Shown here: positions 2,113 through 61,925 of the stretch, piece by piece | Position numbering within the stretch: position 1 is the stretch's first letter | Layout of the letters: every line of letters starts with the position of its first letter | Source of the DNA: an uncultured archaeon | GTDB taxonomy: Archaea; Nanobdellota; Nanobdellia; Pacearchaeales; GW2011-AR1 | DNA: 64,000 bases | Direction of reading: 5' to 3' | NCBI GenBank assembly: GCA_902385655.1 | Contig: CABMGO010000006.1 | Location: 78,499 to 142,498, forward strand | The notes under the pieces: model-generated | Seen by the model: the letters and a program-made list of their open reading frames with translations, nothing else | What the model was told of the DNA's origin: nothing | The model's database searches: none | Translations under genes and position numbers: made by a program

Positions 2113-2787
2113 TTATTTCTTTACTTTTTTAGTTGATTTAATTTCTGATTTTGCTTTTTCATCTAAAATATTTTTCTTTATCTGTCCTATTAAATCTTCT
2201 GTAATCGAAATTTCTTCAGGAGTAATTACATTTGGTGCAAGGATTGAAACTTTTATTCCAATAACTCCTTGTTTATCTGCACCGACGCTTTCAGCATAAC
2301 TAACATTGTTAGATTCGTCTCCAGTTTTTCTTAAATAACCATATTTGAATCTCCATGTCTTAGCTCTCTCGCTTGGAAGTCTTCCAGACATTACAAGTTC
2401 AGCCCCTAATGCGCCAGCGCCCTTGATTTTCATCAATGCTTTGTAAGCAACTGCTTTGAATCTCATTGAACCAAATCTTTCAATTGCTAAAGCAATATCA
2501 TCAGCAACTAATTGTGCATCTAATCCTGGCTTAGCAATTTCTGCAATATCTACATGAGGATTTTCCATCTTGAATCTTTTCTTTAAAGTTTCAGTTAATT
2601 TTTCAATTGTTTCTCCCTTTTTACCGATAATCAAACCTGGTTTGTGGGTGGAGATAATAACTTTTTCACCGACGGGAGTATACTCTACTTTTACAGAAGA
2701 AACTTTACCCTTACCAAATTCTCTCTTGATAAACTCTTTAACTCCGTATTCTTCTTTTCTTATTCCAACAAATTTTCTTTCTTCCAT
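2113..2787 (-). CDS. rps3: 30S ribosomal protein uS3
   Basis: KH domain (GLIIGKKGETIEKL) and the uS3 C-domain (GAELVMSGRLPSERAKTWRFKYG). Confidence 0.92.
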   Translation of the reverse strand: MEERKFVGIRKEEYGVKEFIKREFGKGKVSSVKVEYTPVGEKVIISTHKPGLIIGKKGETIEKLTETLKKRFKMENPHVDIAEIAKPGLDAQLVADDIALAIERFGSMRFKAVAYKALMKIKGAGALGAELVMSGRLPSERAKTWRFKYGYLRKTGDESNNVSYAESVGADKQGVIGIKVSILAPNVITPEEISITEDLIGQIKKNILDEKAKSEIKSTKKVKK

Positions 2788-2788
2788 T

Positions 2789-3379
2789 TTATTTTTTTCC
2801 TCCGTACATTCTAGCTTCTAAATGAACATGAGTTCTCTTTCCTTTTCTTCCTTCTCTTTTATAAGGTCTTGAAGCAATATTAGACATAGCGATTGTTATT
2901 TGAGGATTTTCAATTCCATTAACTTCACAGTTTGCTTTTAATTGCTTTACTAACCCGATAAATTCTTTTGTAGCATTCATAGGGAATCTACCGCTTCCGC
3001 CTGCTGTGTGTGGGATTAATGCTCTTCTTCTGTGAGGAATTTCAGCTCCGATCATTGGAACAGCAAGTTTTTTCTGTAATACTAACTCTAACATTTCCAA
3101 AGCTCTTGTAATGCTTTTCCTTCTAATCATTCTACAGATTGCAACAGATTGTTTTGTACTTATTGCCGCAGAAATTAAATTTGCAACAGCAACTTCTTTT
3201 TTGACTTTTTCAACTTTCACCGCAGGTGACTGGACCGACTTGCTCGGTTCTGCAACTTTTGGTTTTTCAGTTTTAGCTTCAACGGATTCTGTTTTTGTTT
3301 CAGCAGGAGCTACTTCTGTCTTTACTTCCTCGACTTTCTTTGCTTTTTTTGCTTTTGGTGCGTTTGTTTGTTCTACCAT
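2789..3379 (-). CDS. rpl22: 50S ribosomal protein uL22 with a ~60-aa Lys/Glu/Ala/Val/Pro-rich N-terminal extension
   Basis: The C-terminal 135 aa have the uL22 pattern (ISTKQSVAICRMIRRKSITRALEMLE..PHRRR..GRFP). The first ~60 aa are low complexity. Confidence 0.88.
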   Translation of the reverse strand: MVEQTNAPKAKKAKKVEEVKTEVAPAETKTESVEAKTEKPKVAEPSKSVQSPAVKVEKVKKEVAVANLISAAISTKQSVAICRMIRRKSITRALEMLELVLQKKLAVPMIGAEIPHRRRALIPHTAGGSGRFPMNATKEFIGLVKQLKANCEVNGIENPQITIAMSNIASRPYKREGRKGKRTHVHLEARMYGGKK

Positions 3380-6603: not shown

Positions 6604-6978
6604 TATTGAAAATTAGTCCTTCCATATTTTTCAATTTCTGTTTATAGAATAAAAACTAGTTCAGTTTTTATTCGGATATTACTCTCGTAATATTAGCGAA
6701 CCAAGTAAAATAAAAATATTTTACTTCGACTACTTAACAGTTAGCAGCTGTTTTTTTCATCCACTGATTTCAACCAAAATCGTGCGTCTAAACATTTAAG
6801 TTTTAAACGATTATAAAAAAGATAGAAAATGACCCTTTATAAACTTTCCTTAGAAAGTTTAGAATTGGAACGTTATCAGACGTTGCTACTTTAAACCATT
6901 CGCTTGTTTACTTTTACAATTTGGTTCTAATACAAACAATCTATATCTTTAAAATGGGCAGTTTCTCAGATTAAAGTC

Positions 6979-14733: not shown

Positions 14734-14835
14734 ACGCCCGGATCCTGCTCACATTTTGCATTTCGCAAATAAATTTCTAAAAAACAGTTTTGCTCAAAGC
14801 GAAATGTTCAAATCGAACTGTTCGATTCTGAAGGA
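14734..14835 (-). repeat. tRNA-trailer cassette (family 1) downstream of tRNA-Ser, ending in a 12-nt re-copy of the tRNA 3' end
   Basis: ACGCCCGGATCC at 14835-14846 recurs at 14734-14745. Between the copies (tRNA sense): hairpin TTCAGAATCGA/TCGATTTGAA, then the core TTCGCTTTGAGCAAA..TTTGCGAAATGCAAAATGTGAGCAG. Confidence 0.85.
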
Positions 14836-14970
14836 CGCCCGGATCCAGAATCGAACTGGAAAAACCTTGCGGTAACCGGTTTGCTTGAGTTCTCGACGAA
14901 CGAGAGCATTGAAAATCGCCGAAGCGATTTACTGTTCAAGACCGGCGCAGTACCATTGTGCCATCCGGGC
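14836..14970 (-). tRNA. tRNA-Ser(UGA) with a 53-nt intron at the canonical 37/38 position (intron 14882-14934)
   Basis: Hand fold: acceptor GCCCGGA/TCCGGGC, 3-bp D stem, anticodon stem CCGGT/ACCGG, loop CTTGAA|A, long variable arm ACC-GCAA-GGT, T arm TCCAG-TTCGATT-CTGGA. The intron 3' end TCAAG pairs with CTTGA of the anticodon loop. Confidence 0.85.
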
Positions 14971-15039
14971 AGGAAAGCATAAAACTGATTAGAATTAATG
15001 CTTTTTAAGATTTGAGGTTTTGAGGAGGACTTAATAATT

Positions 15040-22973: not shown

Positions 22974-23702
22974 ATGGTAACAGTTCAAAAAAATGACTTT
23001 ATTGAATTAGAATTTACTGGAATTGTCAAAGACACTCAGGAAATTTTCGATACTACGAATAAGGACGAAGCAAAAAAAATTGGTATGCAGAACCCTGAAA
23101 AGGTAAAACCTGCAATGCTTTCGGTAGGTAATAGTATGACAGTAAAAGGGCTTGATGCTGACTTATCCGGAAAAGAAGTTGGAAAAGAATATTCTATCGA
23201 ACTAAAAGCAGAAGATGCATTTGGAAAGAGAAATCCTTCAATGGTCAAAATGATTCCATTAAAACTTTTCTTAGAGCAAAGAATTATGCCTGAGAAGGGA
23301 ATGCAACTTTCTCTTGATGGGATGGTTGTAAAAATTGTCTCTGTTTCAGGCGGAAGAGTTTTAGTAGATTTCAATAATCCTCTTTCGGGAAAAACAATTA
23401 TCTACAAATACAAAATCTCAAGAAAGCTTGAAGACCAAAAGGAAAAAATTAATGCACTTCAAGACTTTTTCTTCAGAAAAACTTTTGATTTCGAAGTCAA
23501 AGAAAAAGATTTAATCATGAAAGTTGATAAGAACATGCAGAAGTTTGTTGAGATGATGGCAAAGCCATTTGAAGAAATTCTCGGATTAAAAGTTAAGGTC
23601 GAAGTTTTCGCTTCGACACAAAGTTCAAAAGTCGGAGATGCAAAAGCTGAGCAAGAGATAGTCGAAAAGAAAGAAGAGAAAAAAGAAGAAGCGAAAAAAT
23701 AA
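22974..23702 (+). CDS. FKBP-type peptidyl-prolyl isomerase (long archaeal form)
   Basis: FIELEFTGIVKDTQEIFDTT start, an IF-flap-like insert, LVDFNNPLSGK, and a C-terminal helical domain. Confidence 0.75.
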   Translation: MVTVQKNDFIELEFTGIVKDTQEIFDTTNKDEAKKIGMQNPEKVKPAMLSVGNSMTVKGLDADLSGKEVGKEYSIELKAEDAFGKRNPSMVKMIPLKLFLEQRIMPEKGMQLSLDGMVVKIVSVSGGRVLVDFNNPLSGKTIIYKYKISRKLEDQKEKINALQDFFFRKTFDFEVKEKDLIMKVDKNMQKFVEMMAKPFEEILGLKVKVEVFASTQSSKVGDAKAEQEIVEKKEEKKEEAKK

Positions 23703-26674: not shown

Positions 26675-26745
26675 GGGGGTATGGGGTAGTGGTAGCCTAC
26701 GAGGTTTGGGACTTCGTGATCTCGGTTCGATCCCGAGTACCCCCA
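26675..26745 (+). tRNA. tRNA-Pro(UGG)
   Basis: Hand fold: acceptor GGGGGTA/TACCCCC, anticodon stem CGAGG/CTTCG, loop TTTGGGA, T arm CTCGG-TTCGATC-CCGAG, discriminator A. No encoded CCA. Confidence 0.9.
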
Positions 26746-26864
26746 TTTAGCCAAAAGAAGTCGGCGATCGAACACTCGATCCTGAGCAAAACGCTTCGAG
26801 CAGACAAACTGAAAAGTTTATAACTGCGAGATGTATTTTGTGAACAGAGTACCCCCATTTAGCC
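26746..26864 (+). repeat. tRNA-trailer cassette (family 1) downstream of tRNA-Pro, ending in an 18-nt re-copy of the tRNA 3' end
   Basis: GAGTACCCCCATTTAGCC at 26735-26752 recurs at 26847-26864. Internal hairpin GATCGA-ACAC-TCGATC, then the core ACGCTTCGAGCAG..CTGCGAGATGTATTTTGTGAACAG. Confidence 0.9.
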
Positions 26865-28215: not shown

Positions 28216-28280
28216 CAAAATAATTGCTCAAATTTTTATTTAACTTATTTTTTAAACCGTTAATTTTTAGGTTTATTTTT

Positions 28281-28386
28281 CCTCATGCAGAGAGGCTCTG
28301 CAAGAGTCATCCCGAATTTTGGATTTTTTGTGCAGGTGAGGGAGAGGACACTTTAAAATGGCTAGTCTTTAATGCAGGAAAAGTGT
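28281..28386 (+). repeat. family 2 structured repeat, long form, copy 1
   Basis: The first 74 nt are identical to 36887-36960 and the whole 106 nt is near-identical. Hairpins: CCTCATGCA..TGCAGGTGAGG and ACACTTT..AAAGTGT. Confidence 0.9.
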
Positions 28387-33080: not shown

Positions 33081-33133
33081 AAAAAAGAAAAAAGGGCAAA
33101 GTTCTATTTGTTATTTAAGCGGTGATAGAAAAT

Positions 33134-33200
33134 TTTTCGCTTTGAGCAAATTTACTTTTATTTTAATATTTGCGAAATGCAAAAAATTTTGAAGTTGCAG
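33134..33200 (+). repeat. family 1 core, solo copy (no tRNA attached)
   Basis: TTTTCGCTTTGAGCAAAT..ATTTGCGAAATGCAAAAAATTTTGAAGTTGCAG. Confidence 0.8.
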
Positions 33201-36853: not shown

Positions 36854-36886
36854 AAAAAAAGAATGTTTTGTAGAATTATAAACCTT

Positions 36887-36992
36887 CCTCATGCAGAGAG
36901 GCTCTGCAAGAGTCATCCCGAATTTTGGATTTTTTGTGCAGGTGAGGGAGAGGACACTTTGAAATGGTTGGTTTTTTATGCAGGAAAAGTGT
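36887..36992 (+). repeat. family 2 structured repeat, long form, copy 2
   Basis: Near-identical to 28281-28386. Confidence 0.9.
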
Positions 36993-41956: not shown

Positions 41957-42304
41957 TTATTGATTTAAAACAGCGGAGCATTTTTTATTTATACATTTGC
42001 AACTTCCCTGACCGCAATCAAGACTTCCAGGCACGCAATCTTGAGTACATAATAAATTGCAGACTCCTTTCGATTGAGAGTTAGCACACGTCGTAGGATG
42101 ACAACACTGTGCTGGAACGCAATCTTCATCCGAGACGCAATCAGCACTATTATTCATCTCAAAACTCTGGTTTGGAATTTTAGTTTTGTTTATTATCTCT
42201 TTGGAACTCGCGTTTTGATTTGAAAGTCTAAAATTAATACATGCAATACTTACTAAAATAATCAGCAATAAAATTCCTACAAGCCGTATCGCTCTTTTTT
42301 TCAT
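41957..42304 (-). CDS. small secreted cysteine-rich protein
   Basis: 115 aa with a signal/anchor helix, then a ~60-aa segment with many Cys (CVSDEDCVPAQCCHPTTC..CNLLCTQDCVPGSLDCGQGSCKCINKKC). Its stop lies 1 nt from the subtilase start. Confidence 0.7.
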   Translation of the reverse strand: MKKRAIRLVGILLLIILVSIACINFRLSNQNASSKEIINKTKIPNQSFEMNNSADCVSDEDCVPAQCCHPTTCANSQSKGVCNLLCTQDCVPGSLDCGQGSCKCINKKCSAVLNQ

Positions 42305-42361
42305 AGCATATATAGACGAGACAAGTTTTAAAAACTATTCGCTCCTTAAGAATATAGTAAC

Positions 42362-43702
42362 ATGATAAAAATTCATACTGTCGGAGGTTATTCTGAAGTT
42401 GGTAAAAACATGACTGTCGTAGAATTCGATGAGGATGCTTTCATCTTTGATGAGGGTTTTTTTCTTCCAGCGATAGTAGAACTTCAAGAAAAAGACAGGG
42501 ATGAATTCACATATTCTGAGTCAAAACTGAAACAAATTAAAGCAATTCCAGAAGACTCTTCAATCGAGAGCATTCGTCACAAAGTTTGCGCCCAGTTTGT
42601 AGGCCATGCCCATCTCGATCATGTTGGAGCAATTCCGTATTTATCTGACAAGTACAATGCAACAATTTATGGCACCCCCTATACTTTAGCAGTTTTAGAT
42701 TCTTTACTAAGGGACAGCGATTTAAATTTAAGGAATAACATAAAAACAATTCATCCAAATACTTCTTTTTATGTTCAAGGTAAAAAGAAAAAATATCTTG
42801 TAGAATTTGTGAATATCACTCATTCTACTCCTCAAACAAGTTTAATTGTTTTGCATACAGAAAAAGGAGCCATCATTTATGCGAATGATTTCAAACTAGA
42901 CGATAATCCTGTCCTAGGTGCACGACCGAACTATGAAAAGTTAAAACAGATTGCAAAACAAGGAGTTTATGCAATAATCGTAGATTCTCTTTACTCGGGC
43001 GCAGACAGAAAAACCCCTTCAGAAAAAATTGCAAGAAATCTTTTAGAAGAAGTTATGTTTAGTGTTGACAAGAAAGATTCTGGGATGATAATTACTACTT
43101 TCTCCTCTCACATTGCTCGTCTGAAAAGCATCGTAGAGTTTGGAGAGAGATTAAACAAGCAGCTTGTCTTTCTAGGGAGAAGTTTAAACAAATATTCTTT
43201 CGCTGCTAAAGATGTAGACATTGCTCCCTTCTTGAAGAATATTCATTTTGCAACCTATCGTAGACAAGTAGAGAAGGCATTGCAAAAAGTAGATCGAAGA
43301 AAACAAGATTATATCTTAGTTTGTACTGGACATCAAGGAGAGCCAGGAAGTATTTTAGAAAGAATTTCTCGAGGGAATTTACCTCTTAAATTAAATCACC
43401 AGTATAACATTCTTTTTTCTTCCAGCGTAATTCCTACGGAGGTTAATAAGAAAAATTTTGAAGAAATGGAAACAAAATTGAAAAAGAAAAATGCACGAAT
43501 TTTCAGAGACCTACATGTCTCGGGCCATGGTGGAAAAGAAGACTTGCGAGAACTCCTCCAAATTTTAAACCCCCAACATATTATTCCTTCACATGGAGGA
43601 TTTGATAAAACTGGTCCAATGAGAGATCTTGCAGTTTCTATGGGGTGGAAAGAAAATAAACAAGTTCATCTTATGTCTGACGGAGATGTGCTCGAACTAT
43701 GA
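42362..43702 (+). CDS. rnj: archaeal RNase J (beta-CASP metallo-beta-lactamase ribonuclease)
   Basis: GGYSEVGKNM, HAHLDHVGAIPYL, and beta-CASP motifs through to HVSGHG. Confidence 0.85.
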   Translation: MIKIHTVGGYSEVGKNMTVVEFDEDAFIFDEGFFLPAIVELQEKDRDEFTYSESKLKQIKAIPEDSSIESIRHKVCAQFVGHAHLDHVGAIPYLSDKYNATIYGTPYTLAVLDSLLRDSDLNLRNNIKTIHPNTSFYVQGKKKKYLVEFVNITHSTPQTSLIVLHTEKGAIIYANDFKLDDNPVLGARPNYEKLKQIAKQGVYAIIVDSLYSGADRKTPSEKIARNLLEEVMFSVDKKDSGMIITTFSSHIARLKSIVEFGERLNKQLVFLGRSLNKYSFAAKDVDIAPFLKNIHFATYRRQVEKALQKVDRRKQDYILVCTGHQGEPGSILERISRGNLPLKLNHQYNILFSSSVIPTEVNKKNFEEMETKLKKKNARIFRDLHVSGHGGKEDLRELLQILNPQHIIPSHGGFDKTGPMRDLAVSMGWKENKQVHLMSDGDVLEL

Positions 43703-44010
43703 GTGAGATTTCCGGAATAATTAAAAATGGGATGCAAAGAGGATGGCAGCCAAAAGAAATTTACCAAAGTCTTTTGAACTCTGGATATAATCCTCAAGAA
43801 ATTCAATCTGAAATAAATAAACTCTCGGCTGTTGCTCAACCAGTTCAGCAAGTTTCTTCTCAAGGTAATGGGCAAAAATTAGCTCCCTATCAGATTCCTG
43901 TACCGCAAGAAAAAAAATCTGCTGGAAAAGGATTAATCATTGCACTAGTTATTTTAGCTATTATTGTAGTACTTGGCGGGGCAAGTTTTATTTTGTTTGG
44001 GCCAAAATAA
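43699..44010 (+). CDS. hypothetical tail-anchored membrane protein
   Basis: 103-aa ORF with a soluble N-domain, a Gln-rich linker and a C-terminal TM helix. Confidence 0.55.
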   Translation: MSEISGIIKNGMQRGWQPKEIYQSLLNSGYNPQEIQSEINKLSAVAQPVQQVSSQGNGQKLAPYQIPVPQEKKSAGKGLIIALVILAIIVVLGGASFILFGPK

Positions 44011-44011
44011 C

Positions 44012-44542
44012 ATGTCAATCTATATTCCGGCCGAAGATTCCTTTTTATTCTCTGAATTTTTAAAAGAATATCTTTCAAAAAATAAAGTAAGTTCTTATTT
44101 AGATATGGGCACGGGCTCGGGAATTTTATCAGAAACTGTCTCAGAATTTTTGGACAAAAAAAATATTTTAGCAGTTGATATTGATGAGGAATCTTTTGAA
44201 TTCGTGAAGAATAAAGGATTCAAAGTCTTGCAGTCTAATTTATTTTCAAAAATTTCTAAAAATAAAAAATTTGATTTAATTACTCTCAATGCACCATATC
44301 TTCCCTTAGAAGAAGGAGAATCTAAAGACTCTCAAAGGATTACTACGGGTGGAAAAAAGGGAGATGAAATTTCTTTAAAATTTCTTAAGCAAGCAAAAAC
44401 TCATTTAAACAAAGATGGAAAAATATTTTTATTAATTTCTTCCCTAACTCCTATGAGTAAAATAAAAAAATATTCTCCTAAAGTAGTTGCAGAGAGAAGT
44501 TTATTCATGGAGAAACTTTTTATACTTGAATTCTCAAATTAG
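44012..44542 (+). CDS. HemK/Mtq2-like SAM-dependent methyltransferase
   Basis: Start taken at MSIYIPAEDS. LDMGTGSGIL (motif I) and LNAPYLP (an NPPY variant). Confidence 0.6.
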   Translation: MSIYIPAEDSFLFSEFLKEYLSKNKVSSYLDMGTGSGILSETVSEFLDKKNILAVDIDEESFEFVKNKGFKVLQSNLFSKISKNKKFDLITLNAPYLPLEEGESKDSQRITTGGKKGDEISLKFLKQAKTHLNKDGKIFLLISSLTPMSKIKKYSPKVVAERSLFMEKLFILEFSN

Positions 44543-44545
44543 TCT

Positions 44546-45673
44546 ATGCTATCTTCACAAATTCACAAAAGGATAAATTTCAATTTTGAAGGACAAAAAC
44601 TAATTTTTGATACTTCTCGAATTTTATTCAGTTCAGCACAAGTAGATGAAGGAACAAAAGAACTTCTAAACTCTTTAAGAAAAAATAAAGAAATCAATCC
44701 AAAAAAAATTCTTGATCTTGGTTGCGGTTATGGAGTTATCGGAATTTTTTTAAAAAAACTATTTCCCGATTCAGAGGTCTTATGTGCTGATCGAGACTCC
44801 TTAGCTGTAGAACTTACCAAACACAATGCAAAACTTAACGATGCTAAAATTAAGGCTATTTCTTCTTTAGATTTTCAGCAAATAGATGAAAAACTTGATT
44901 TTATAGCATGTAATTTTCCAGCGAAGCTCGAAGCAAATGGACTAAAGTCTTTTATTTCTCAATCTTCAAATCATTTGAACAAAAAAGGAGTTCTTGCAAT
45001 AGTTGTAGTAAAAGAACTTTCAGAAGATCTTGAAAAGATTATTTCAGAGTTCAATTTAGAAAAAGAAAAAATAAAAATCTCTTTCAAAGAAAAAAAATCA
45101 AGCTATTCCATTTTTCATATTTCTTTTTCACAAGAATTAGAAATCTCAGAAGATTCTTACTCTTTAGAAGACAATTCCATTCAGCTTGGAAAAAAAGTTT
45201 ATTCAATTAAGACGACAAAAGCTCTTCAAGAGTTTGATAGTTTACACTTTAACACAGAATTAATCTTGGACTTTCTACAAGGTCTAACTTTTGAAAATGT
45301 CGCTATAATTGATCCTGGCCAGGGTTTTTCTGCCATTGCATCAACGAATAGAAACTCTTTGGAAAAACTAACCTTAGTTTCAAGAGATTTGCTTCAGTTA
45401 AAAATTTCTTCCGATAATTTAAAGTTAAACAAAATAAACAATGTCGAAATAATTAATCAAGATCTCTACGAAGGCAAATCAGATCTATTAATCTGGTCGG
45501 TTCACGACGAAAACGACACTGAAATAATTGAAAAAATAAAAGTTTATCGAATGAATAATCGAAATATTTTACTCGCGGGGAGAAAAGTCAATCTTCAAAG
45601 AATTCTTAAAAGATTAAACATCAAAATAAAACAGCAATCCGAAAAAGGAAAATACCTTTGCGTTTTGATTTGA
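44546..45673 (+). CDS. class I SAM-dependent methyltransferase (RsmC/RlmG-like, with an extra C-terminal domain)
   Basis: FSSAQVDEGTKELL, ILDLGCGYGVIG and ACNFPAK. Confidence 0.55.
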   Translation: MLSSQIHKRINFNFEGQKLIFDTSRILFSSAQVDEGTKELLNSLRKNKEINPKKILDLGCGYGVIGIFLKKLFPDSEVLCADRDSLAVELTKHNAKLNDAKIKAISSLDFQQIDEKLDFIACNFPAKLEANGLKSFISQSSNHLNKKGVLAIVVVKELSEDLEKIISEFNLEKEKIKISFKEKKSSYSIFHISFSQELEISEDSYSLEDNSIQLGKKVYSIKTTKALQEFDSLHFNTELILDFLQGLTFENVAIIDPGQGFSAIASTNRNSLEKLTLVSRDLLQLKISSDNLKLNKINNVEIINQDLYEGKSDLLIWSVHDENDTEIIEKIKVYRMNNRNILLAGRKVNLQRILKRLNIKIKQQSEKGKYLCVLI

Positions 45674-45699
45674 CGTCGGTAAATTATCTTGTTAAAAAA

Positions 45700-45720
45700 C
45701 CAAACGTTTATAAAGCGCCT
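45700..45720 (+). promoter_or_regulatory. candidate rRNA operon promoter (BRE/TATA)
   Basis: CCAAACGTTTATAAAGCGCC. The TATA form is the one seen before many genes here. Confidence 0.5.
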
Positions 45721-45786
45721 TTTTATCCTCTATTTTATCAATATGATAACTTTGGACAAAAAATCCAAAGCTTCAATAAATTTCAT

Positions 45787-45838
45787 TGAAGCTAGAATGA
45801 GTACTTTATCATCGCATAGAGTATGATGTAAGGCCATT
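45787..45838 (+). other. 16S processing-stem 5' strand
   Basis: TGAAGCTAG..TAAGGCCATT is complementary to AATGGCCTTACTAGCTTCA at 47512-47530. A ~33-nt extra hairpin is bulged from the 5' strand. Confidence 0.7.
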
Positions 45839-46021
45839 TTTAGTTACGTCAATTCTTTTATATTAATACAAACTTTTACGAGTGAAAAAAGTTTTTGTAA
45901 ACTGAAAATGTTTTAAGAGCAATTTTCAGATAGGATAGATCTTGTTTATTCGATATGATTATGATTAATTTTCCTTTCTTATATCGAAGCTGATAATTTG
46001 TAATATTACAATATTAGTTTA

Positions 46022-47610: not shown

Positions 47611-47681
47611 GGGCCTGTAGTCTAGTAGTAAAATACCTCCCTTGCACGGAGGGGTCTCGGGTGCGATTCCCGACAGGTCCA
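47611..47681 (+). tRNA. tRNA-Ala(UGC) in the 16S-23S spacer
   Basis: Acceptor GGGCCTG/CAGGTCC with G3:U70, anticodon stem CCTCC/GGAGG, loop CTTGCAC, and T arm CTCGG-GTGCGATT-CCCGA region. The D arm is AT-rich and weak. Confidence 0.85.
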
Positions 47682-47797
47682 TTTTGCTACGTCGGGAGAG
47701 CACATGCGATTCCGAAAAATTCGCTTCGAGCAAAAACAAAAGTAAAACAAAATTTACTTTTTTGCGAGATGCAAATTTTGAGCAGACAGGTCCATTT
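47682..47797 (+). repeat. tRNA-trailer cassette (family 1) downstream of tRNA-Ala, ending in a 13-nt re-copy of the tRNA 3' end
   Basis: GACAGGTCCATTT at 47672-47684 recurs at 47785-47797. It has the T-arm-like hairpin TCGGGA..TTCCGA containing TGCGATTCC, then the core TTCGCTTCGAGCAAAAA..TTTTTTGCGAGATGCAAATTTTGAGCAG. Confidence 0.9.
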
Positions 47798-47839
47798 CCG
47801 ACGAGAAATGGAAAATCACAAATCACACTCACTAAAAAA

Positions 47840-47918
47840 ATTTCGCTTCGAGCGGAACAAGATAACTAAAAATTATCTTCCGCGAAATGCAAAATTTTTT
47901 CTAAAATGAGAGAGCAAG
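47840..47918 (+). repeat. family 1 core, solo copy in the ITS
   Basis: ATTTCGCTTCGAGCGGAAC..TCTTCCGCGAAATGCAAAATTTTTTC, followed by the hairpin AGAGCA-AGAAA-TGCTCT. Confidence 0.8.
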
Positions 47919-52117: not shown

Positions 52118-52448
52118 ACCGGGACATAGGCCACTTTCTGTCGGAATTTGGTCTTATTCAAACATTCCGTGTCAACATCAAACTAAGCCTTGGTAATGAA
52201 AAAATCATCTCAACATTTCTGTCTTTGACAACTTCTTCTCAAGTTGCATCAATCAGGGTGATCGTTTCATCGTAATTTAATACGCTCGTCTCTGTATCAG
52301 AGCCCTCGCCTCACGACGGCCGTCTTTCGACGATGATTTTGTCTTTACGAAATCAATCGCAAAGGATGTGCGGACCTTCCTCAGAAACTAGAAATCATTT
52401 TACATTTCTCTGGCTTCTAACCAAGTTTCCGAAATTGACTGTCCCGGT
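52118..52448 (-). ncRNA. rnpB: RNase P RNA
   Basis: The minus strand has a terminal helix ACCGGGACA/TGTCCCGGT, a CR-I-like GAGGAAGGTCCGCAC, and ACAGAAAGTGGCC near the 3' end. It is a relatively GC-rich island of about 330 nt. Confidence 0.85.
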
Positions 52449-52547: not shown

Positions 52548-52619
52548 GGGTTCGTAGCTCATTGGGAGAGCGTCCGACTGAAGCTCGGTAGGTAGGGAGT
52601 TCGATTCTCCCCGAGCCCA
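52548..52619 (+). tRNA. tRNA-Phe(GAA)
   Basis: Acceptor GGGTTCG/CGAGCCC, D arm GCTC-ATTGGGA-GAGC, anticodon loop CTGAAGC, and T arm GGGAG-TTCGATT-CTCCC. The TATA box GTTTAAAAATG lies about 25 nt upstream. Confidence 0.9.
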
Positions 52620-52734
52620 TTTTCTTGAATCGAACGACCGTAGTAGGGAGCGAAAATTTTACACCGAGAAATTCTTATTTCATTTATTTAATTTAGAGAT
52701 GTGAAATTTGAGTAGATTCTCCCCGAGCCCATTT
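52620..52734 (+). repeat. tRNA-trailer cassette (family 1, divergent) downstream of tRNA-Phe, ending in a 20-nt re-copy of the tRNA 3' end
   Basis: GATTCTCCCCGAGCCCATTT at 52603-52622 recurs at 52715-52734. GAATCGAAC (52627-52635) is antisense to the T loop GTTCGATTC. Core: CACCGAGAAATT..AATTTAGAGATGTGAAATTTGAGTAG. Confidence 0.85.
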
Positions 52735-53393
52735 CATTTTCTGTTCAACTCATAAGAAATTGTATCGACTCTTTTTCCATCGAGAAATTTATCTCCCGGA
52801 ACAATTTTTGTTTTCACAAAATTAAATTTTTCAAGCAATTTTTGAGAAGCAATATTATCTATCAAAACTTTCGCAATTATCTTCTCTACCTTAAGTTCAT
52901 TAAAAGCGTATTCAATAACCTTGGGCACTATTTCCGAAACGTAACCTTTTCTTCTGTATTCCTTCCCAATCCAATAGCCTATTTTGACTTTTCCTCCTGC
53001 AGAGGCGTTCTGCAAGAATGTCGCCGAGAATTGTTTTGAAGTATGCAGGCGAGGGGAGGACACCTGAGGTTGGTGAGAATGCAGGACAGGTGTCGTTTCT
53101 CCCCTCTTCCAGTTATGCAAATCAAGCAAACCAATAACTTCTTTATTTTTTTTCAAAAAAATTGCAAACCTTATCAGTTCCTTATTAGTTTGATTTTCTA
53201 AAATAAGTTTCTCCGCCTCTTTTTTGTTTAGAGGGTATGGGAGATAGTATGTCAAATAACTTAACTCTTTTTCATTCCCATTTTTAACTAAATCATTGAC
53301 ATCTTTCAAAATTGGCTTTCTCAAAATAATTCTCTCACTAACTATCTCTGTTGGAAGAGTTTCTCTGAAATCTATTTTATTTTTTAGTTTCAT
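52734..53393 (-). CDS. GNAT family N-acetyltransferase (RimJ/RimL-like) carrying a 34-codon in-frame insertion of a family 2 repeat
   Basis: IGYWIGKEYRRKGY..IIAKVLIDNIASQKLLEKFNF is the GNAT core. The segment TPVLHSHQPQ..LQNASAGG is encoded by repeat 52992-53093. Confidence 0.8.
   Translation of the reverse strand: MKLKNKIDFRETLPTEIVSERIILRKPILKDVNDLVKNGNEKELSYLTYYLPYPLNKKEAEKLILENQTNKELIRFAIFLKKNKEVIGLLDLHNWKRGETTPVLHSHQPQVSSPRLHTSKQFSATFLQNASAGGKVKIGYWIGKEYRRKGYVSEIVPKVIEYAFNELKVEKIIAKVLIDNIASQKLLEKFNFVKTKIVPGDKFLDGKRVDTISYELNRK
52993..53093 (+). repeat. family 2 structured repeat, long form, divergent subfamily, inside the GNAT ORF
   Basis: CCTCCTGCAGAGGCGTTCTGCAAGAATGTCGCCGAGAATTG..ATGCAGGCGAGGGGAGG-ACACCTG..CAGGTGT. 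The second hairpin shows compensatory changes relative to ACACTTT/AAAGTGT. Confidence 0.8.
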
Positions 53394-57749: not shown

Positions 57750-58412
57750 TTGAAAGTACATGACGAGCAATTCGCTTTGAAGAACAAAATGGAAGAAAAA
57801 AATAAATCTGAAATGCAAATTGCGAGAGAATTTGTATATTACTCTCAAAATGCAGTAACCTCTGGAAATATGATCAAAGACGATCTTATGAAAGCTGGAA
57901 GAATGGACATTGCTATAAATGTTTTAATTTCTGCATTTTTTCTTTCGCATGATGTAAGGAAGGATGTAAAATTGCACTTAATTTTTGAAGGACCTCCAAC
58001 CCCTCCTGTTCACATTTTGATTGAGTATGATGAAGACCTTGCGATTTCGAAAAAAGACGTTGCAGGGTTAATAAAAAGAATTTTGTATAAATGTCCTTCT
58101 GAAAAAGGCAAAACTGTTAAAGCTTTTCCCGGATGTTTTGTAGAAAAAAAATCTTTCGAAGCATTAGTGGATGAATTAGACAAGTCTGGAAAAAATGTTT
58201 TTCTTCTAGATAAGAAAGGAACAGACATCCGAGATCTAAAATTGAATGGAAATGAAGTTTTTGTGCTAGGTGACCAAGATGGTTTTCCCGACAGCAAGAG
58301 GCATCTTTTAAAAAGAATAGACAAAATTACCGTTTCACCTAAAATGCTTTTTGCTTCCCAAGTTTTAACAATAGTACATAATGAAATCGATAGAAAAGAG
58401 ATTTCGCAATAA
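57750..58412 (+). CDS. trmY: tRNA (pseudouridine54-N1)-methyltransferase TrmY (SPOUT, DUF358)
   Basis: REFVYYSQNAVTSG..GRMDIAINVLISAFFLSHDVRKD resembles archaeal TrmY. The true start is probably an internal Met. Confidence 0.65.
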   Translation: MKVHDEQFALKNKMEEKNKSEMQIAREFVYYSQNAVTSGNMIKDDLMKAGRMDIAINVLISAFFLSHDVRKDVKLHLIFEGPPTPPVHILIEYDEDLAISKKDVAGLIKRILYKCPSEKGKTVKAFPGCFVEKKSFEALVDELDKSGKNVFLLDKKGTDIRDLKLNGNEVFVLGDQDGFPDSKRHLLKRIDKITVSPKMLFASQVLTIVHNEIDRKEISQ

Positions 58413-61863: not shown

Positions 61864-61925
61864 CGGGCGTTCTGCAAGAATGTCACCGAGAATTGGCTTG
61901 TTCTTGTGCAAGCGAGGGAAAACTT
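61864..61925 (+). repeat. family 2 repeat fragment (same subfamily as the GNAT insert)
   Basis: GGCGTTCTGCAAGAATGTCACCGAGAATTGG..GTGCAAGCGAGGGAAAAC aligns with 53004-53060. It overlaps the 3' end of ORF 61883-62611. Confidence 0.7.

Follow-up and report, generated by a model that had tools for sequence, protein, structure and literature searches.

The window, a 64-kb stretch of DNA, carries an intact tRNA-Phe (GAA) gene on its plus strand (52548..52619; ARAGORN, with an Rfam tRNA score of 62.5 bits), and several short sequences derived from or adjoining this gene lie on the same strand. A 20-nt direct repeat extends in its first copy (B1, 52603..52622) from G57 of the T loop to the discriminator base and a following TTT, and its second copy (B2, 52715..52734) is a re-copied tRNA 3′ end, again with TTT. 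Between them lie an inverted copy of the T-loop region (52627..52635), a direct echo (52638..52650) of the variable loop plus the T-stem 5′ strand and a hairpin, termed HP (52650..52716), which is a diverged member of a conserved family. The 92 nt between the two repeat copies contain no ORF, and the whole insertion amounts to ~90 bases. These relations had been claimed in a first-pass annotation of the locus, and they held: GATTCTCCCCGAGCCCATTT occurs exactly twice, at 52603-52622 and 52715-52734, with no further match at up to 3 mismatches (0 expected from 100 shuffles); GAATCGAAC (52627-52635) is the exact reverse complement of GTTCGATTC (52599-52607); and CCGTAGTAGGGAG (52638-52650) resembles CGGTAGGTAGGGAG (52586-52599), from which it differs by one substitution and one missing G. 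What had been called a divergent core, 52650-52716, aligns end to end with a covariance model built from 94 hairpins (cmsearch, model R1, full-length, 27.3 bits, rough E about 9e-6). At tRNA-Phe, relatives carry the antisense piece too (GAATCGAACTCC in contigs L122, L123 and L195), so that the lack of conservation which the annotation had named as evidence against its own proposal was not observed. The minus-strand GNAT acetyltransferase gene that follows (52734..53393) shares, as had been stated, one base of its stop codon (52734-52736) with B2; this contact is incidental, and relatives have the GNAT gene elsewhere relative to tRNA-Phe. The GNAT gene also contains an unrelated in-frame insertion of 34 amino acids.

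The same cassette layout is found at each of the window's four tRNA genes, those for Phe, Pro and Ala and one for Ser that contains an intron. The tRNA-Pro cassette (26675..26864, plus strand) consists of the tRNA (26675-26745), an inverted piece (26766-26773), an echo (26775-26786) and HP (26782-26848), with its repeat pair at 26735-26752 and 26847-26864. That of tRNA-Ala, located in the 16S-23S spacer (47611..47797, plus strand), comprises the tRNA (47611-47681), a degenerate inverted piece (47692-47704), an echo (47705-47713), HP (47712-47786) and the repeat pair 47672-47684 and 47785-47797. The intron-bearing gene, which default tRNA scans overlooked and which we assigned by hand to Ser-UGA, lies with its cassette on the minus strand (14734..14971): the tRNA occupies 14971-14833, the inverted piece 14830-14820, the echo 14819-14806, HP 14811-14744, and the repeats 14846-14835 and 14745-14734. 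The Phe repeat (20 nt) is the longest of the four, followed by those of Pro (18 nt), Ala (13 nt) and Ser (12 nt); the chance expectation for each of these last three pairs was 0. Model R1 matched eight sites in the window, the Phe core among them, and seven of the eight are sense to local transcription. A second HP of the rRNA spacer (47834..47904, plus strand) has no tRNA re-copy and is found at the same, orthologous place in L158 and L169. Plus-strand copies were also found at the 5′ end of an RNA methyltransferase gene (57763..57830; gene 57750..58412), between genes (33128..33194, an A/T-stem subtype antisense to the flanking minus-strand genes) and in frame inside an FKBP gene (23599..23655; gene 22974..23702). 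In the FKBP gene, HP forms a clean 54-nt in-frame insertion of 18 extra amino acids, missing from eight close homologs; five empty sites are present in homologs that are 88-92% identical, and a 2-base ‘GA’ microhomology lies at both junctions of the insert (a 2-nt duplication). The FKBP site had raised the idea that the lower stem of HP derives from the target sequence; this was rejected, since the five empty sites place the stem in the insert. Intergenic HP copies show no evident target duplication.

HP is ~60-75 nt long, typically ~67 nt, with the consensus C-GA-RCAATT-CGC-UUYGA-[variable stem-loop]-GARAU-GCA-AATTGY-GA-GYA. In an alignment of 94 non-redundant members, 97.5% of cells are paired and compensatory changes occur in 11 of 13 pairs, a level of covariation reached by none of 500 shuffles; G-U wobbles lie on the sense strand. 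The arms are imperfect inverted repeats that covary like a hairpin stem and are not conserved as protein sites would be. Tandem G.A pairs, a C.A pair and the UUYGA/GARAU loop are conserved non-Watson-Crick features, and the internal loop is 5x5. Even the ‘variable’ loop has 73-94% identity between different tRNA loci, the whole loop being common to unrelated loci. Rfam gave no family match to HP at the gathering threshold and generic hairpins only at E<=10. Neither box C/D motifs (RUGAUGA, CUGA) nor ACA boxes occur in the HP alignment, and the box C/D and H/ACA guide sRNA readings were rejected; a k-turn reading was set aside because the strand that stays unbulged in a k-turn has three additional bases in the HP internal loop.

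How widely is this arrangement distributed? An HP-only pattern retrieved 111 metagenomic contigs; they were chosen for the presence of HP, and the counts given below therefore hold within this set and are not frequencies of the cassette per genome. A scan of species genomes with a looser pattern returned chance matches in GC-rich bacteria only (L001-L120), and the metagenome locus L180 is a chance match as well. Organism names came solely from protein matches; the archaea concerned are Pacearchaeota-like DPANN with small genomes. Model R1 detected 125 HPs in the first 100 fetched contigs (L121-L221). A tRNA gene of any isotype lies within 250 nt for 106 of 138 HPs (96 on the 3′ side and 10 on the 5′ side), and of the 3′-side copies 74 have the same orientation as the tRNA and 22 the opposite one (77% co-oriented). 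Just beyond HP, an exact re-copy of the tRNA 3′ end of at least 10 nt was found at 67 of 86 tRNAs, against one in the upstream control; the period of the re-copy is about 100-123 nt, its length varies from 10 to 35 nt, and ~92-100 nt without an ORF separate the two copies. On HP-bearing contigs, 27 of 39 tRNAs have no cassette. The parts follow a fixed order: an intact tRNA gene, a few flanking bases, a short inverted copy of the sequence at the insertion point, a 6-13-nt direct copy, HP in either orientation and, last, a direct copy of everything in the gene beyond the insertion point, plus 1-7 nt of flank, which at tRNA-Phe is the 20-nt repeat. Insertion points fall in the T loop near 56/57, in both T-stem strands, at about 25/26 and in the D loop, and among the loci we saw no tRNA gene interrupted by HP. 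HP strongly prefers tRNA genes, and the tRNA-Phe cassette, which had been described as a property of that one tRNA, is one copy of a repeated and apparently mobile hairpin element present at dozens of tRNAs and elsewhere.

The inverted T-arm piece beside a direct echo is likewise a general feature, specific to each tRNA. Exact antisense matches of at least 9 nt were found in 31% of cognate tRNA pairs versus 7% of non-cognate pairs, and sense echoes of at least 8 nt in 51% versus 6%. A perfect palindrome (at least 5 bp, with a centre of 0-4 nt) abuts HP at 48% of loci versus 4% of shuffles; the centres of the junction palindromes measure 0-2 nt, and 1-3 filler bases are present at junctions. 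Mirror-image cassettes, in which promoter DNA is duplicated, occur at tRNA 5′ ends (L154/L175, L191 and L209), and L155 has a full pseudo-copy. The annotation had suggested that an antisense T-loop ‘guide’ beside a sense echo reflects hairpin-mediated or template-switch copying. The copying part of this proposal agrees with the palindromes, which are of the kind that fold-back copying leaves; the guide part found no support, as the centres are too short for RNA hairpins and the 5′ mirrors copy untranscribed promoter DNA. Because the centres are short, the 5′ mirrors include promoter DNA and HP occurs in either orientation, we regard the inverted and direct pieces as a DNA-level scar and not as an RNA guide; the mirror architecture at tRNA 5′ ends likewise indicates that the process acts on DNA, independently of tRNA transcription. 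Copying from the tRNA transcript had been considered as the repeat ends near the tRNA 3′ end; the copy is not followed by CCA, however, and promoter DNA is present in the 5′ mirrors, so this origin was rejected.

Sites in different states were found among related contigs. The orthologous tRNA-Phe loci of the window, L121 and L122 are in three different states. An Arg-Cys tRNA cluster is empty between Arg and Cys in L231 and L216 and filled in L146, and in L213, L219 and L205 a decayed pseudo-Cys is accompanied by an inverted HP. Tandem copy number is unequal between near-identical contigs (L127 versus L184, and L211 versus L214). Against mobility count the shared position of the rRNA-spacer HP in the window, L158 and L169, and the presence of cassettes at 4 of 4 window tRNAs, which is denser than a sporadic parasite would predict. 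The strand bias (77% at tRNAs, and that of the window copies) and the conserved non-Watson-Crick features would also fit a selected role in RNA or protein binding. HP has the appearance of a small mobile repeat of a kind not yet described; our literature searches found no description of this tRNA-HP arrangement.

We looked for an enzyme or carrier. Among the 40 ORFs of the window, Pfam identified no transposase, integrase or reverse transcriptase, no Cas1 was seen, and the 64-kb window contains no gene for a Y1 HUH transposase (RAYT/TnpA). The 40 window ORFs gave housekeeping genes only, and so did 480 ORFs clustered from HP-bearing contigs; a candidate whose N-terminus resembles that of a transposase looks, from its motifs by eye, like a class II aminoacyl-tRNA synthetase. 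No recurrent non-syntenic ORF was present in the fetched HP-bearing contigs (L121-L241), no parent IS with a matching transposase was found in these contigs or in the window, and viral contigs gave no match to two HP patterns. With no transposase, integrase or reverse transcriptase, no recurrent ORF and no viral HP, these searches identified no mobilising enzyme. An integrase remnant was considered at L121 and discarded, as neither a third att copy nor an integrase is present there; the extra 3.5 kb of L121 encodes a sugar-kinase-like protein and another unremarkable protein (ORF translations, motifs by eye).

Do the cassettes belong to a known class of elements? The att sites of viruses, plasmids and ICEs share with them a complete tRNA gene whose 3′ part recurs at some distance as an exact direct copy, and some att repeats also begin in the T loop. 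Williams is said, in work of 2002, to treat the T loop as a known crossover sublocation. The tRNA 3′-part direct repeat of att sites is found here (the 20-nt pair at tRNA-Phe and 67 of 86 loci), whereas a kilobase-sized, integrase-encoding element is not. Known att repeats bracket integrase-encoding elements of 9-120 kb (PMC9897764). The cassettes, in contrast, span about 92-100 nt, are ORF-free, and have a hairpin at a fixed position, a fold-back palindrome and 5′ mirrors. REP/REPIN sequences with RAYT and the PATEs of IS200/IS605 resemble HP in being short, abundant, imperfect palindromes with compensatory stem variation that occur in both orientations, mostly outside genes, are non-autonomous and are probably active as folded single strands. 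However, HP is longer, has the 5x5 internal loop and tandem G.A pairs, lacks a RAYT/TnpA in the window, and duplicates its target at tRNAs, whereas these elements insert without target duplication and have no preference for tRNAs. Elements of this type are known from Bacteria and some Archaea, and we know of none with the architecture of the HP cassette. MITEs, like HP, are under 100 nt and non-coding, with imperfect inverted-repeat arms, a variable middle and many copies; in HP, however, the target duplication has no fixed length (2 nt in FKBP, 10-35 nt at tRNAs), the arms covary rather than being conserved, and the window and HP-bearing contigs yielded no parent IS.

Rickettsia palindromic elements (RPEs) are small palindromic repeats that lie in frame in protein genes and also in RNA genes and are tolerated by the host. 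PMC1779305 mentions them. They resemble HP in the in-frame insertion of a palindromic repeat into a conserved ORF (for HP, the 18 amino acids or 54 nt in FKBP), but differ in sequence and host domain, are not concentrated at tRNA ends, and involve neither partial gene duplication nor an inverted copy. In casposon or CRISPR spacer integration by Cas1, an element that enters beside a tRNA 3′ end, or at a repeat, ends up with the target segment duplicated on both sides (PMC5137440). For casposons, which are bounded by terminal inverted repeats and carry cargo of kilobase size, the duplication is a constant 14-15 bp, whereas that of HP varies from 10 to 35 nt; no Cas1 was seen in the window. Template-switch junctions (quasipalindromes, FoSTeS/MMBIR and polymerase-theta end joining) show nearby inverted and direct copies, tiny palindrome centres and a few filler bases. 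They are, however, sporadic one-offs, whereas the HP cassettes are the same ordered product at dozens of tRNA genes, always with the same hairpin.

Considering these observations, we propose that the tRNA-Phe repeat pair brackets one cassette of the HP family and that HP is probably a small, non-autonomous copy-and-paste element of Pacearchaeota-like DPANN archaea, a reading to which we would give a probability of roughly 0.6. The element would move as a single-stranded form, DNA or RNA, that folds, presumably with the help of an enzyme for which our searches gave no candidate. The near-zero-loop palindrome of inverted and direct copies is most likely the scar that a DNA polymerase leaves when it switches template by fold-back (snap-back); this multi-step path and its order of events are pieced together from end products. 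Either the insertion chemistry itself might re-synthesise the displaced gene end, or only rescued alleles might survive, because the tRNA is essential. Later, unequal exchange between direct repeats would produce tandem arrays, differences in copy number and the occasional loss of HP. We speculate further, and with considerable doubt, that HP marks a new insertion pathway directed to tRNA genes that heals its own damage, entering at exposed loops and junctions (about 25/26, the D loop and T loop 56/57) and re-synthesising the gene by fold-back. If so, an intact gene would always stay beside the hairpin-bearing fragment, and the pathway would keep generating tRNA gene fragments, and possibly also the non-canonical introns and split tRNA genes that are typical of DPANN archaea. 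Less likely than such a pathway is that HP RNA docks to the tRNA elbow through its UUYGA/GARAU loop and acts in tRNA metabolism.

Could the cassettes have formed without a dedicated element? Fragile tRNA genes might be repaired by microhomology-driven synthesis with several template switches, HP serving as a favoured ectopic template; the fold-back palindromes, the 1-3 filler bases, the local duplications and the ‘GA’ at both FKBP junctions suit such an origin, as do the lack of a transposase among the 40 window ORFs and in HP-bearing contigs and the presence of other hairpin types in the same architecture (L149, L154 and L186). We nonetheless consider it unlikely: the same order of parts at more than 50 independent loci, with HP always complete, is more regular than usual error-prone repair, HP is also cleanly inserted in non-tRNA DNA, and the extreme preference for one template of about 67 nt would demand a special explanation. 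Similarly unlikely, in our view, is that the cassette is a functional RNA module, a co-transcribed trailer in which HP would bind a protein or tRNA (for example through L7Ae-type G.A motifs or a double T-loop-like internal loop that docks to the tRNA elbow) while base pairing of the cognate tRNA with the antisense piece and with the re-copied 3′ end would assist or regulate its folding, processing or modification. It conflicts with the 22 of 96 3′-side copies that are antisense to the tRNA, the many tRNAs on the same contigs without a cassette and the differences between close relatives, the copies in an ORF, in intergenic DNA and at decayed pseudo-tRNAs, palindrome centres of 0-2 nt that RNA cannot fold, the promoter DNA copied in the 5′ mirrors, and the absence of C/D and H/ACA boxes and of an Rfam match; in addition, T runs directly 3′ of the tRNA may stop transcription ahead of the cassette. 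In its favour are the strongly covarying stem, whose wobble pairs lie on the sense strand, the conserved tandem G.A pairs, the resemblance of the UUYGA pentanucleotide to a T loop, the co-orientation of 77% of tRNA-linked copies with the tRNA, the sense orientation of seven of eight window copies to local transcription, and the way in which antisense and sense pieces track the cognate tRNA; in the folded Phe read-through RNA, moreover, the T loop lies against the antisense piece, and the second copy against the 5′ strand of the acceptor stem.

Direct repeats of tRNA 3′ parts are the classic mark of integration (PMC9897764), and several of the repeats begin inside the T loop, so the pair might be attL and attR of a virus or plasmid most of which was later deleted. 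This is very improbable, given the about 92-100 ORF-free nucleotides between the repeats, the lack of an integrase in the window and of a third repeat in L121, and the 5′ mirrors and the HPs within full-length pseudo-tRNAs and an ORF, which do not fit; moreover, at more than 60 different tRNAs the spacing between this same conserved hairpin and the second repeat is constant, which random deletion would not produce. We give hardly any credence to the idea that the downstream copy is an alternative 3′ exon, the first copy and HP being spliced out as a non-canonical intron. The minimum-free-energy fold of the Phe and Ala read-through RNAs does pair the acceptor 5′ strand with the second copy, and the HP positions at about 25/26 and 56/57 resemble known sites of non-canonical introns or splits in tRNA genes. 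The upstream gene, however, is already complete, HP occurs in both orientations, no bulge-helix-bulge could be drawn at the junctions on inspection, and the pseudo-copies lack T54-T55-C56, so that excision of HP cannot restore a T loop.

The reading of HP as a mobile repeat bears on the origin of disrupted tRNA genes. The tRNA genes of DPANN and other archaea are famously interrupted, split or permuted. Mobile DNA has long been proposed as a driver of this disruption, with little direct evidence; the cassettes show a small repeat that has apparently struck tRNA genes repeatedly at structural junctions, reproducibly yielding partial gene copies. Because filled, empty, tandem and decayed states are visible in environmental genomes, the proposal is open to testing on metagenomes and reads that are already available. 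A dedicated enzyme, should there be one, would represent a system for site-directed DNA insertion whose target and product are both unusual. HP can also insert in frame into proteins. In practical terms, partial copies and intron-bearing genes mislead tRNA annotation, default tools overlooking one of the four window tRNAs, and HP repeats break assemblies, many HP-pattern contigs being just 1-5 kb. Several contigs start or stop inside or right beside an HP.

The tRNA-Phe(GAA) gene (52548-52619) lies in a window that carries archaeal 16S and 23S rRNA genes, has a G+C content of about 33%, and encodes proteins with matches in Candidatus Pacearchaeota/Nanoarchaeia; the DNA is archaeal. The first-pass annotation had reported a long repeat at this gene, and the 20-mer GATTCTCCCCGAGCCCATTT indeed occurs exactly twice, at 52603-52622 and 52715-52734, with 0 occurrences expected by chance. 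The antisense and sense pieces that it described were also recovered: GAATCGAAC (52627-52635) matches the T-loop segment 52599-52607 in reverse complement, and CCGTAGTAGGGAG (52638-52650) echoes 52586-52599. The palindrome is partly decayed at this locus, with 9 antisense bases left and then a 13-nt echo. The 'divergent core' that follows (52650-52716) proved to be a copy of HP, a conserved hairpin of about 67 nt, scoring 27.3 bits with a covariance model, and the convergent GNAT open reading frame (ORF) does end, on the minus strand, at 52734. All statements of the first-pass annotation proved correct; the tRNA-Phe finding is real, and it shows just the margin of a larger phenomenon that was not recognised at first. 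The arrangement is not peculiar to tRNA-Phe; the same layout occurs at tRNA-Pro, tRNA-Ala and tRNA-Ser in the window.

After tRNA-Pro and after tRNA-Ala, which sits in the 16S-23S spacer, an insert of 94-100 nt is followed by an exact re-copy of the gene's own 3' end, and the start-to-start spacing of the repeats is 112, 113 and 112 nt for tRNA-Pro, tRNA-Ala and tRNA-Phe, respectively. The fourth gene (14971-14833, minus strand), located via a motif search, was missed by default ARAGORN and Rfam and has a 53-nt intron at the canonical position; ARAGORN labels it tRNA-Ala when introns are allowed, and by hand it is tRNA-Ser(UGA), with an anticodon loop CUUGAAC, a long variable arm and G73. At all four genes, HP is the right-hand part of the insert. 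A second HP lies in the 16S-23S spacer (47834-47904), downstream of the tRNA-Ala cassette, and is conserved in position in the related rRNA operons of two of the metagenomic contigs fetched for bearing HP (L158, 821-892; L169, 350-421). In L123, another of these contigs, a further HP directly follows the 3' end of the 23S gene; the window lacks an HP at this position.

The HP copies form a genuine structured family. A pattern for HP alone, containing no tRNA sequence, retrieved 111 metagenomic contigs, and the covariance model detected 8 copies in the window and 125 in the first 100 fetched contigs (L121-L221). In an alignment of 94 non-redundant copies (79 columns), 97.5% of cells are paired in the hand-drawn hairpin and both-sided changes occur in 11 of 13 pairs; neither 500 shuffles nor slid registers came near the real value. 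Non-Watson-Crick features are also conserved, namely tandem G.A/A.G at the stem base, C.A in CGC/GCA and a 5x5 loop UUYGA/GARAU. Because the wobbles are G-U on the strand as written, that strand folds single-stranded, as DNA or RNA. No Rfam family matched HP, and we found no account of this tRNA-hairpin arrangement in a literature search; HP is a widespread family of small hairpin repeats that is apparently undescribed.

The association with tRNA genes is strong and follows a regular anatomy. A regular expression counted 138 HPs, of which 106 have a tRNA, of whatever isotype, no more than 250 nt away: 74 on the 3' side and co-oriented, 22 on the 3' side and opposite, and 10 on the 5' side. At 67 of 86 tRNA loci, an exact re-copy of the gene's own 3' end, at least 10 nt long (maximum 35), follows just past HP and gives a repeat period of about 100-123 nt; the upstream-side control gave 1. 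In most cases the re-copy begins within the T loop (G57/A58) or where the T stem meets the acceptor stem, and it stops 1-7 nt beyond the discriminator, with no CCA. The intact tRNA is followed by a few trailer bases, an inverted copy of the variable loop, T-stem 5' strand and T loop (A'), a centre of 0-4 nt, a 6-13-nt direct copy of the bases immediately left of the insertion point (A*), 1-3 filler bases, HP and, last, the terminal copy (B2). Both A' and A* follow the cognate tRNA: antisense exact matches of at least 9 nt occur in 31% of cognate versus 7% of non-cognate pairs, and sense matches of at least 8 nt in 51% versus 6%. Perfect palindromes that reach 5 bp or more and end no further than 4 nt from HP are present at 48% of loci versus 4% of shuffles; with a minimum of 6 bp, the values are 33% versus 1%. 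Their typical centre of 0-2 nt is too small for an RNA hairpin and is a signature of fold-back DNA synthesis. Cassettes at tRNA-Gln (L149), tRNA-Met (L154/L175; L216, tRNA at 6845-6916) and tRNA-Gly (L186) keep the inverted piece, the echo and the re-copied 3' end around other hairpins or a diverged subtype; therefore, the arrangement is not bound to a single hairpin sequence.

On the 5' side, cassettes take a mirror-image form, in which the copied 5' flank and tRNA 5' end are followed by HP, a direct copy of about 8 nt, its inverted copy, the promoter and the intact tRNA. They were found at tRNA-Leu (L154/L175) and tRNA-Cys (L191, L209), and L155 has a full-length pseudo-copy on the 5' side of tRNA-Phe. 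Read on the opposite strand, their 5'-to-3' order equals that of the 3' cassettes. The orientation of HP does not depend on this architecture, and the 5' cassettes duplicate untranscribed promoter DNA. Such sequence features argue for an origin of the cassettes at the DNA rather than the transcript level. The first-pass annotation had linked an antisense T-loop guide and its neighbouring sense echo to hairpin-mediated or template-switch copying; the mirror-image cassettes and tiny palindrome centres favour polymerase template switching over an RNA 'guide'.

Several comparisons are evidence that HP moves. On HP-bearing contigs, 27 of 39 other tRNAs have no cassette. The orthologous tRNA-Phe locus exists in three states: a co-oriented, diverged HP in the window; an inverted HP with a decayed re-copy in L122/L123; and, in L121, another spacer plus two tandem 163-nt units upstream (2690-3020), each made up of promoter DNA plus the 5' part of the tRNA and bearing an inverted HP within the D loop, with an inverted repeat, CTGAAGC...GCTTCAG, at the junction. 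The Arg(TCT)-Cys(GCA) pair has no cassette between its genes in L231 and L216 and one after Arg in L146. Decayed full-length pseudo-tRNA-Cys copies carry an inverted HP near 25/26 (L213, L219, L205), and a pseudo-Cys in L216 bears two HPs. Within two pairs of near-identical contigs, the number of tandem units differs by one (L127 vs L184; L211 vs L214), and the longest arrays have four (L163, L224). When loci at different tRNAs are compared, the 'variable' loop of HP shows 73-94% identity; therefore, the whole element is copied in one piece. HP also lies at 23599-23655 within an FKBP-type prolyl isomerase ORF (22974..23702, plus strand), as a 54-nt in-frame insertion that adds 18 translated residues to the C-terminal tail. 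Eight homologs at 70-90% identity lack it, and in five empty sites compared as DNA, from close relatives at 88-92% identity, only 'GA' is common to both junctions. Neither this site nor the intergenic copies show a long duplication or palindrome; duplication is therefore a feature of tRNA targets only.

How could such a product have been generated? As the most likely mechanism, we propose that HP would enter exposed parts of tRNA genes, via a putative trans-acting enzyme or template switching, and that the segment from the insertion point to the gene end would be duplicated by new synthesis that folds back at the junction, leaving an intact tRNA gene next to a hairpin-bearing fragment. This outcome might be the direct product of insertion chemistry at hairpin-forming targets or, tRNA being essential, the sole class to survive; later unequal exchange between direct repeats would give rise to arrays and copy-number differences. 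A cassette in L191 (6882-6965), after tRNA-Met (6810-6881), keeps the palindrome with its inverted T-arm piece, as well as a pseudo T-arm and a re-copy of the 3' end, with just 'GA' at the expected position of HP, and may be a footprint of HP loss. No transposase, integrase, Cas1 or reverse transcriptase was found among the 40 window ORFs, no mobile-type ORF recurs in the HP-bearing contigs, and HP patterns had no match in viral contigs.

A role of HP as an RNA or protein-binding element stays alive beside this proposal. Such a role would fit the co-orientation of 77% of tRNA-linked HPs, the conserved G.A motifs, the resemblance of UUYGA to a T loop and the orthologous placement of the rRNA-spacer HP. 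In the minimum-free-energy fold of a read-through tRNA-Phe transcript, the antisense piece is indeed paired to the T loop. A dedicated tRNA-maturation module is made less likely by the opposite-strand copies, the patchy distribution, the insertions in an ORF and in pseudo-genes, and the mirror-image cassettes. So regular a product, with HP complete, is difficult to reconcile with a pure repair artefact. We ruled out integrase remnants by size, the fixed position of HP and the 5' cassettes, and an intron by pseudo-copies that lack T54-C56. HP behaves like REP, RPE or MITE selfish repeats, yet the tests that define each of these families do not place it clearly in any of them, and those that define integrase att sites likewise set the cassettes apart. 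The nearest published picture comprises tRNA fragments left behind by kilobase integrating elements (PMC9897764) and the duplication of a target at the 3' end of a tRNA by casposons (PMC5137440). The HP family combines a striking preference for tRNA genes with a reproducible duplication-plus-fold-back product.

Other features of the window were also noted. The cumulative GC skew falls to its minimum at about 42000-46000, a little upstream of the rRNA operon, and this minimum may mark a replication origin; HP orientation does not switch across it. The ribosomal protein L11 gene (25938-26639, plus strand) encodes an Ala/Glu/Pro-rich C-terminal tail of about 70 residues, ending just before the tRNA-Pro promoter. 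Between an RRM-protein gene and tRNA-Phe lies an archaeal RNase P RNA gene (52118-52414, minus strand; Rfam RF00373, 57.4 bits, E 2.5e-15), missed at default thresholds because its score is below the gathering score of 84; by eye, an RNase P-like conserved motif, GAGGAAGGTCCG, adjoins tRNA-Phe in L122/L123 too. The GNAT acetyltransferase gene (52734..53393, minus strand) has a G+C-rich in-frame insertion of 34 aa (about 52990-53095) that four homologs lack. A 30-nt piece of it recurs with 96.7% identity at 61866-61895 and matches less well at 28277-28305 and 36885-36911; it belongs to a second repeat family, unrelated to HP, that likewise lands inside ORFs. The GNAT homolog in L121 carries another insertion, of 18 aa, at another place.
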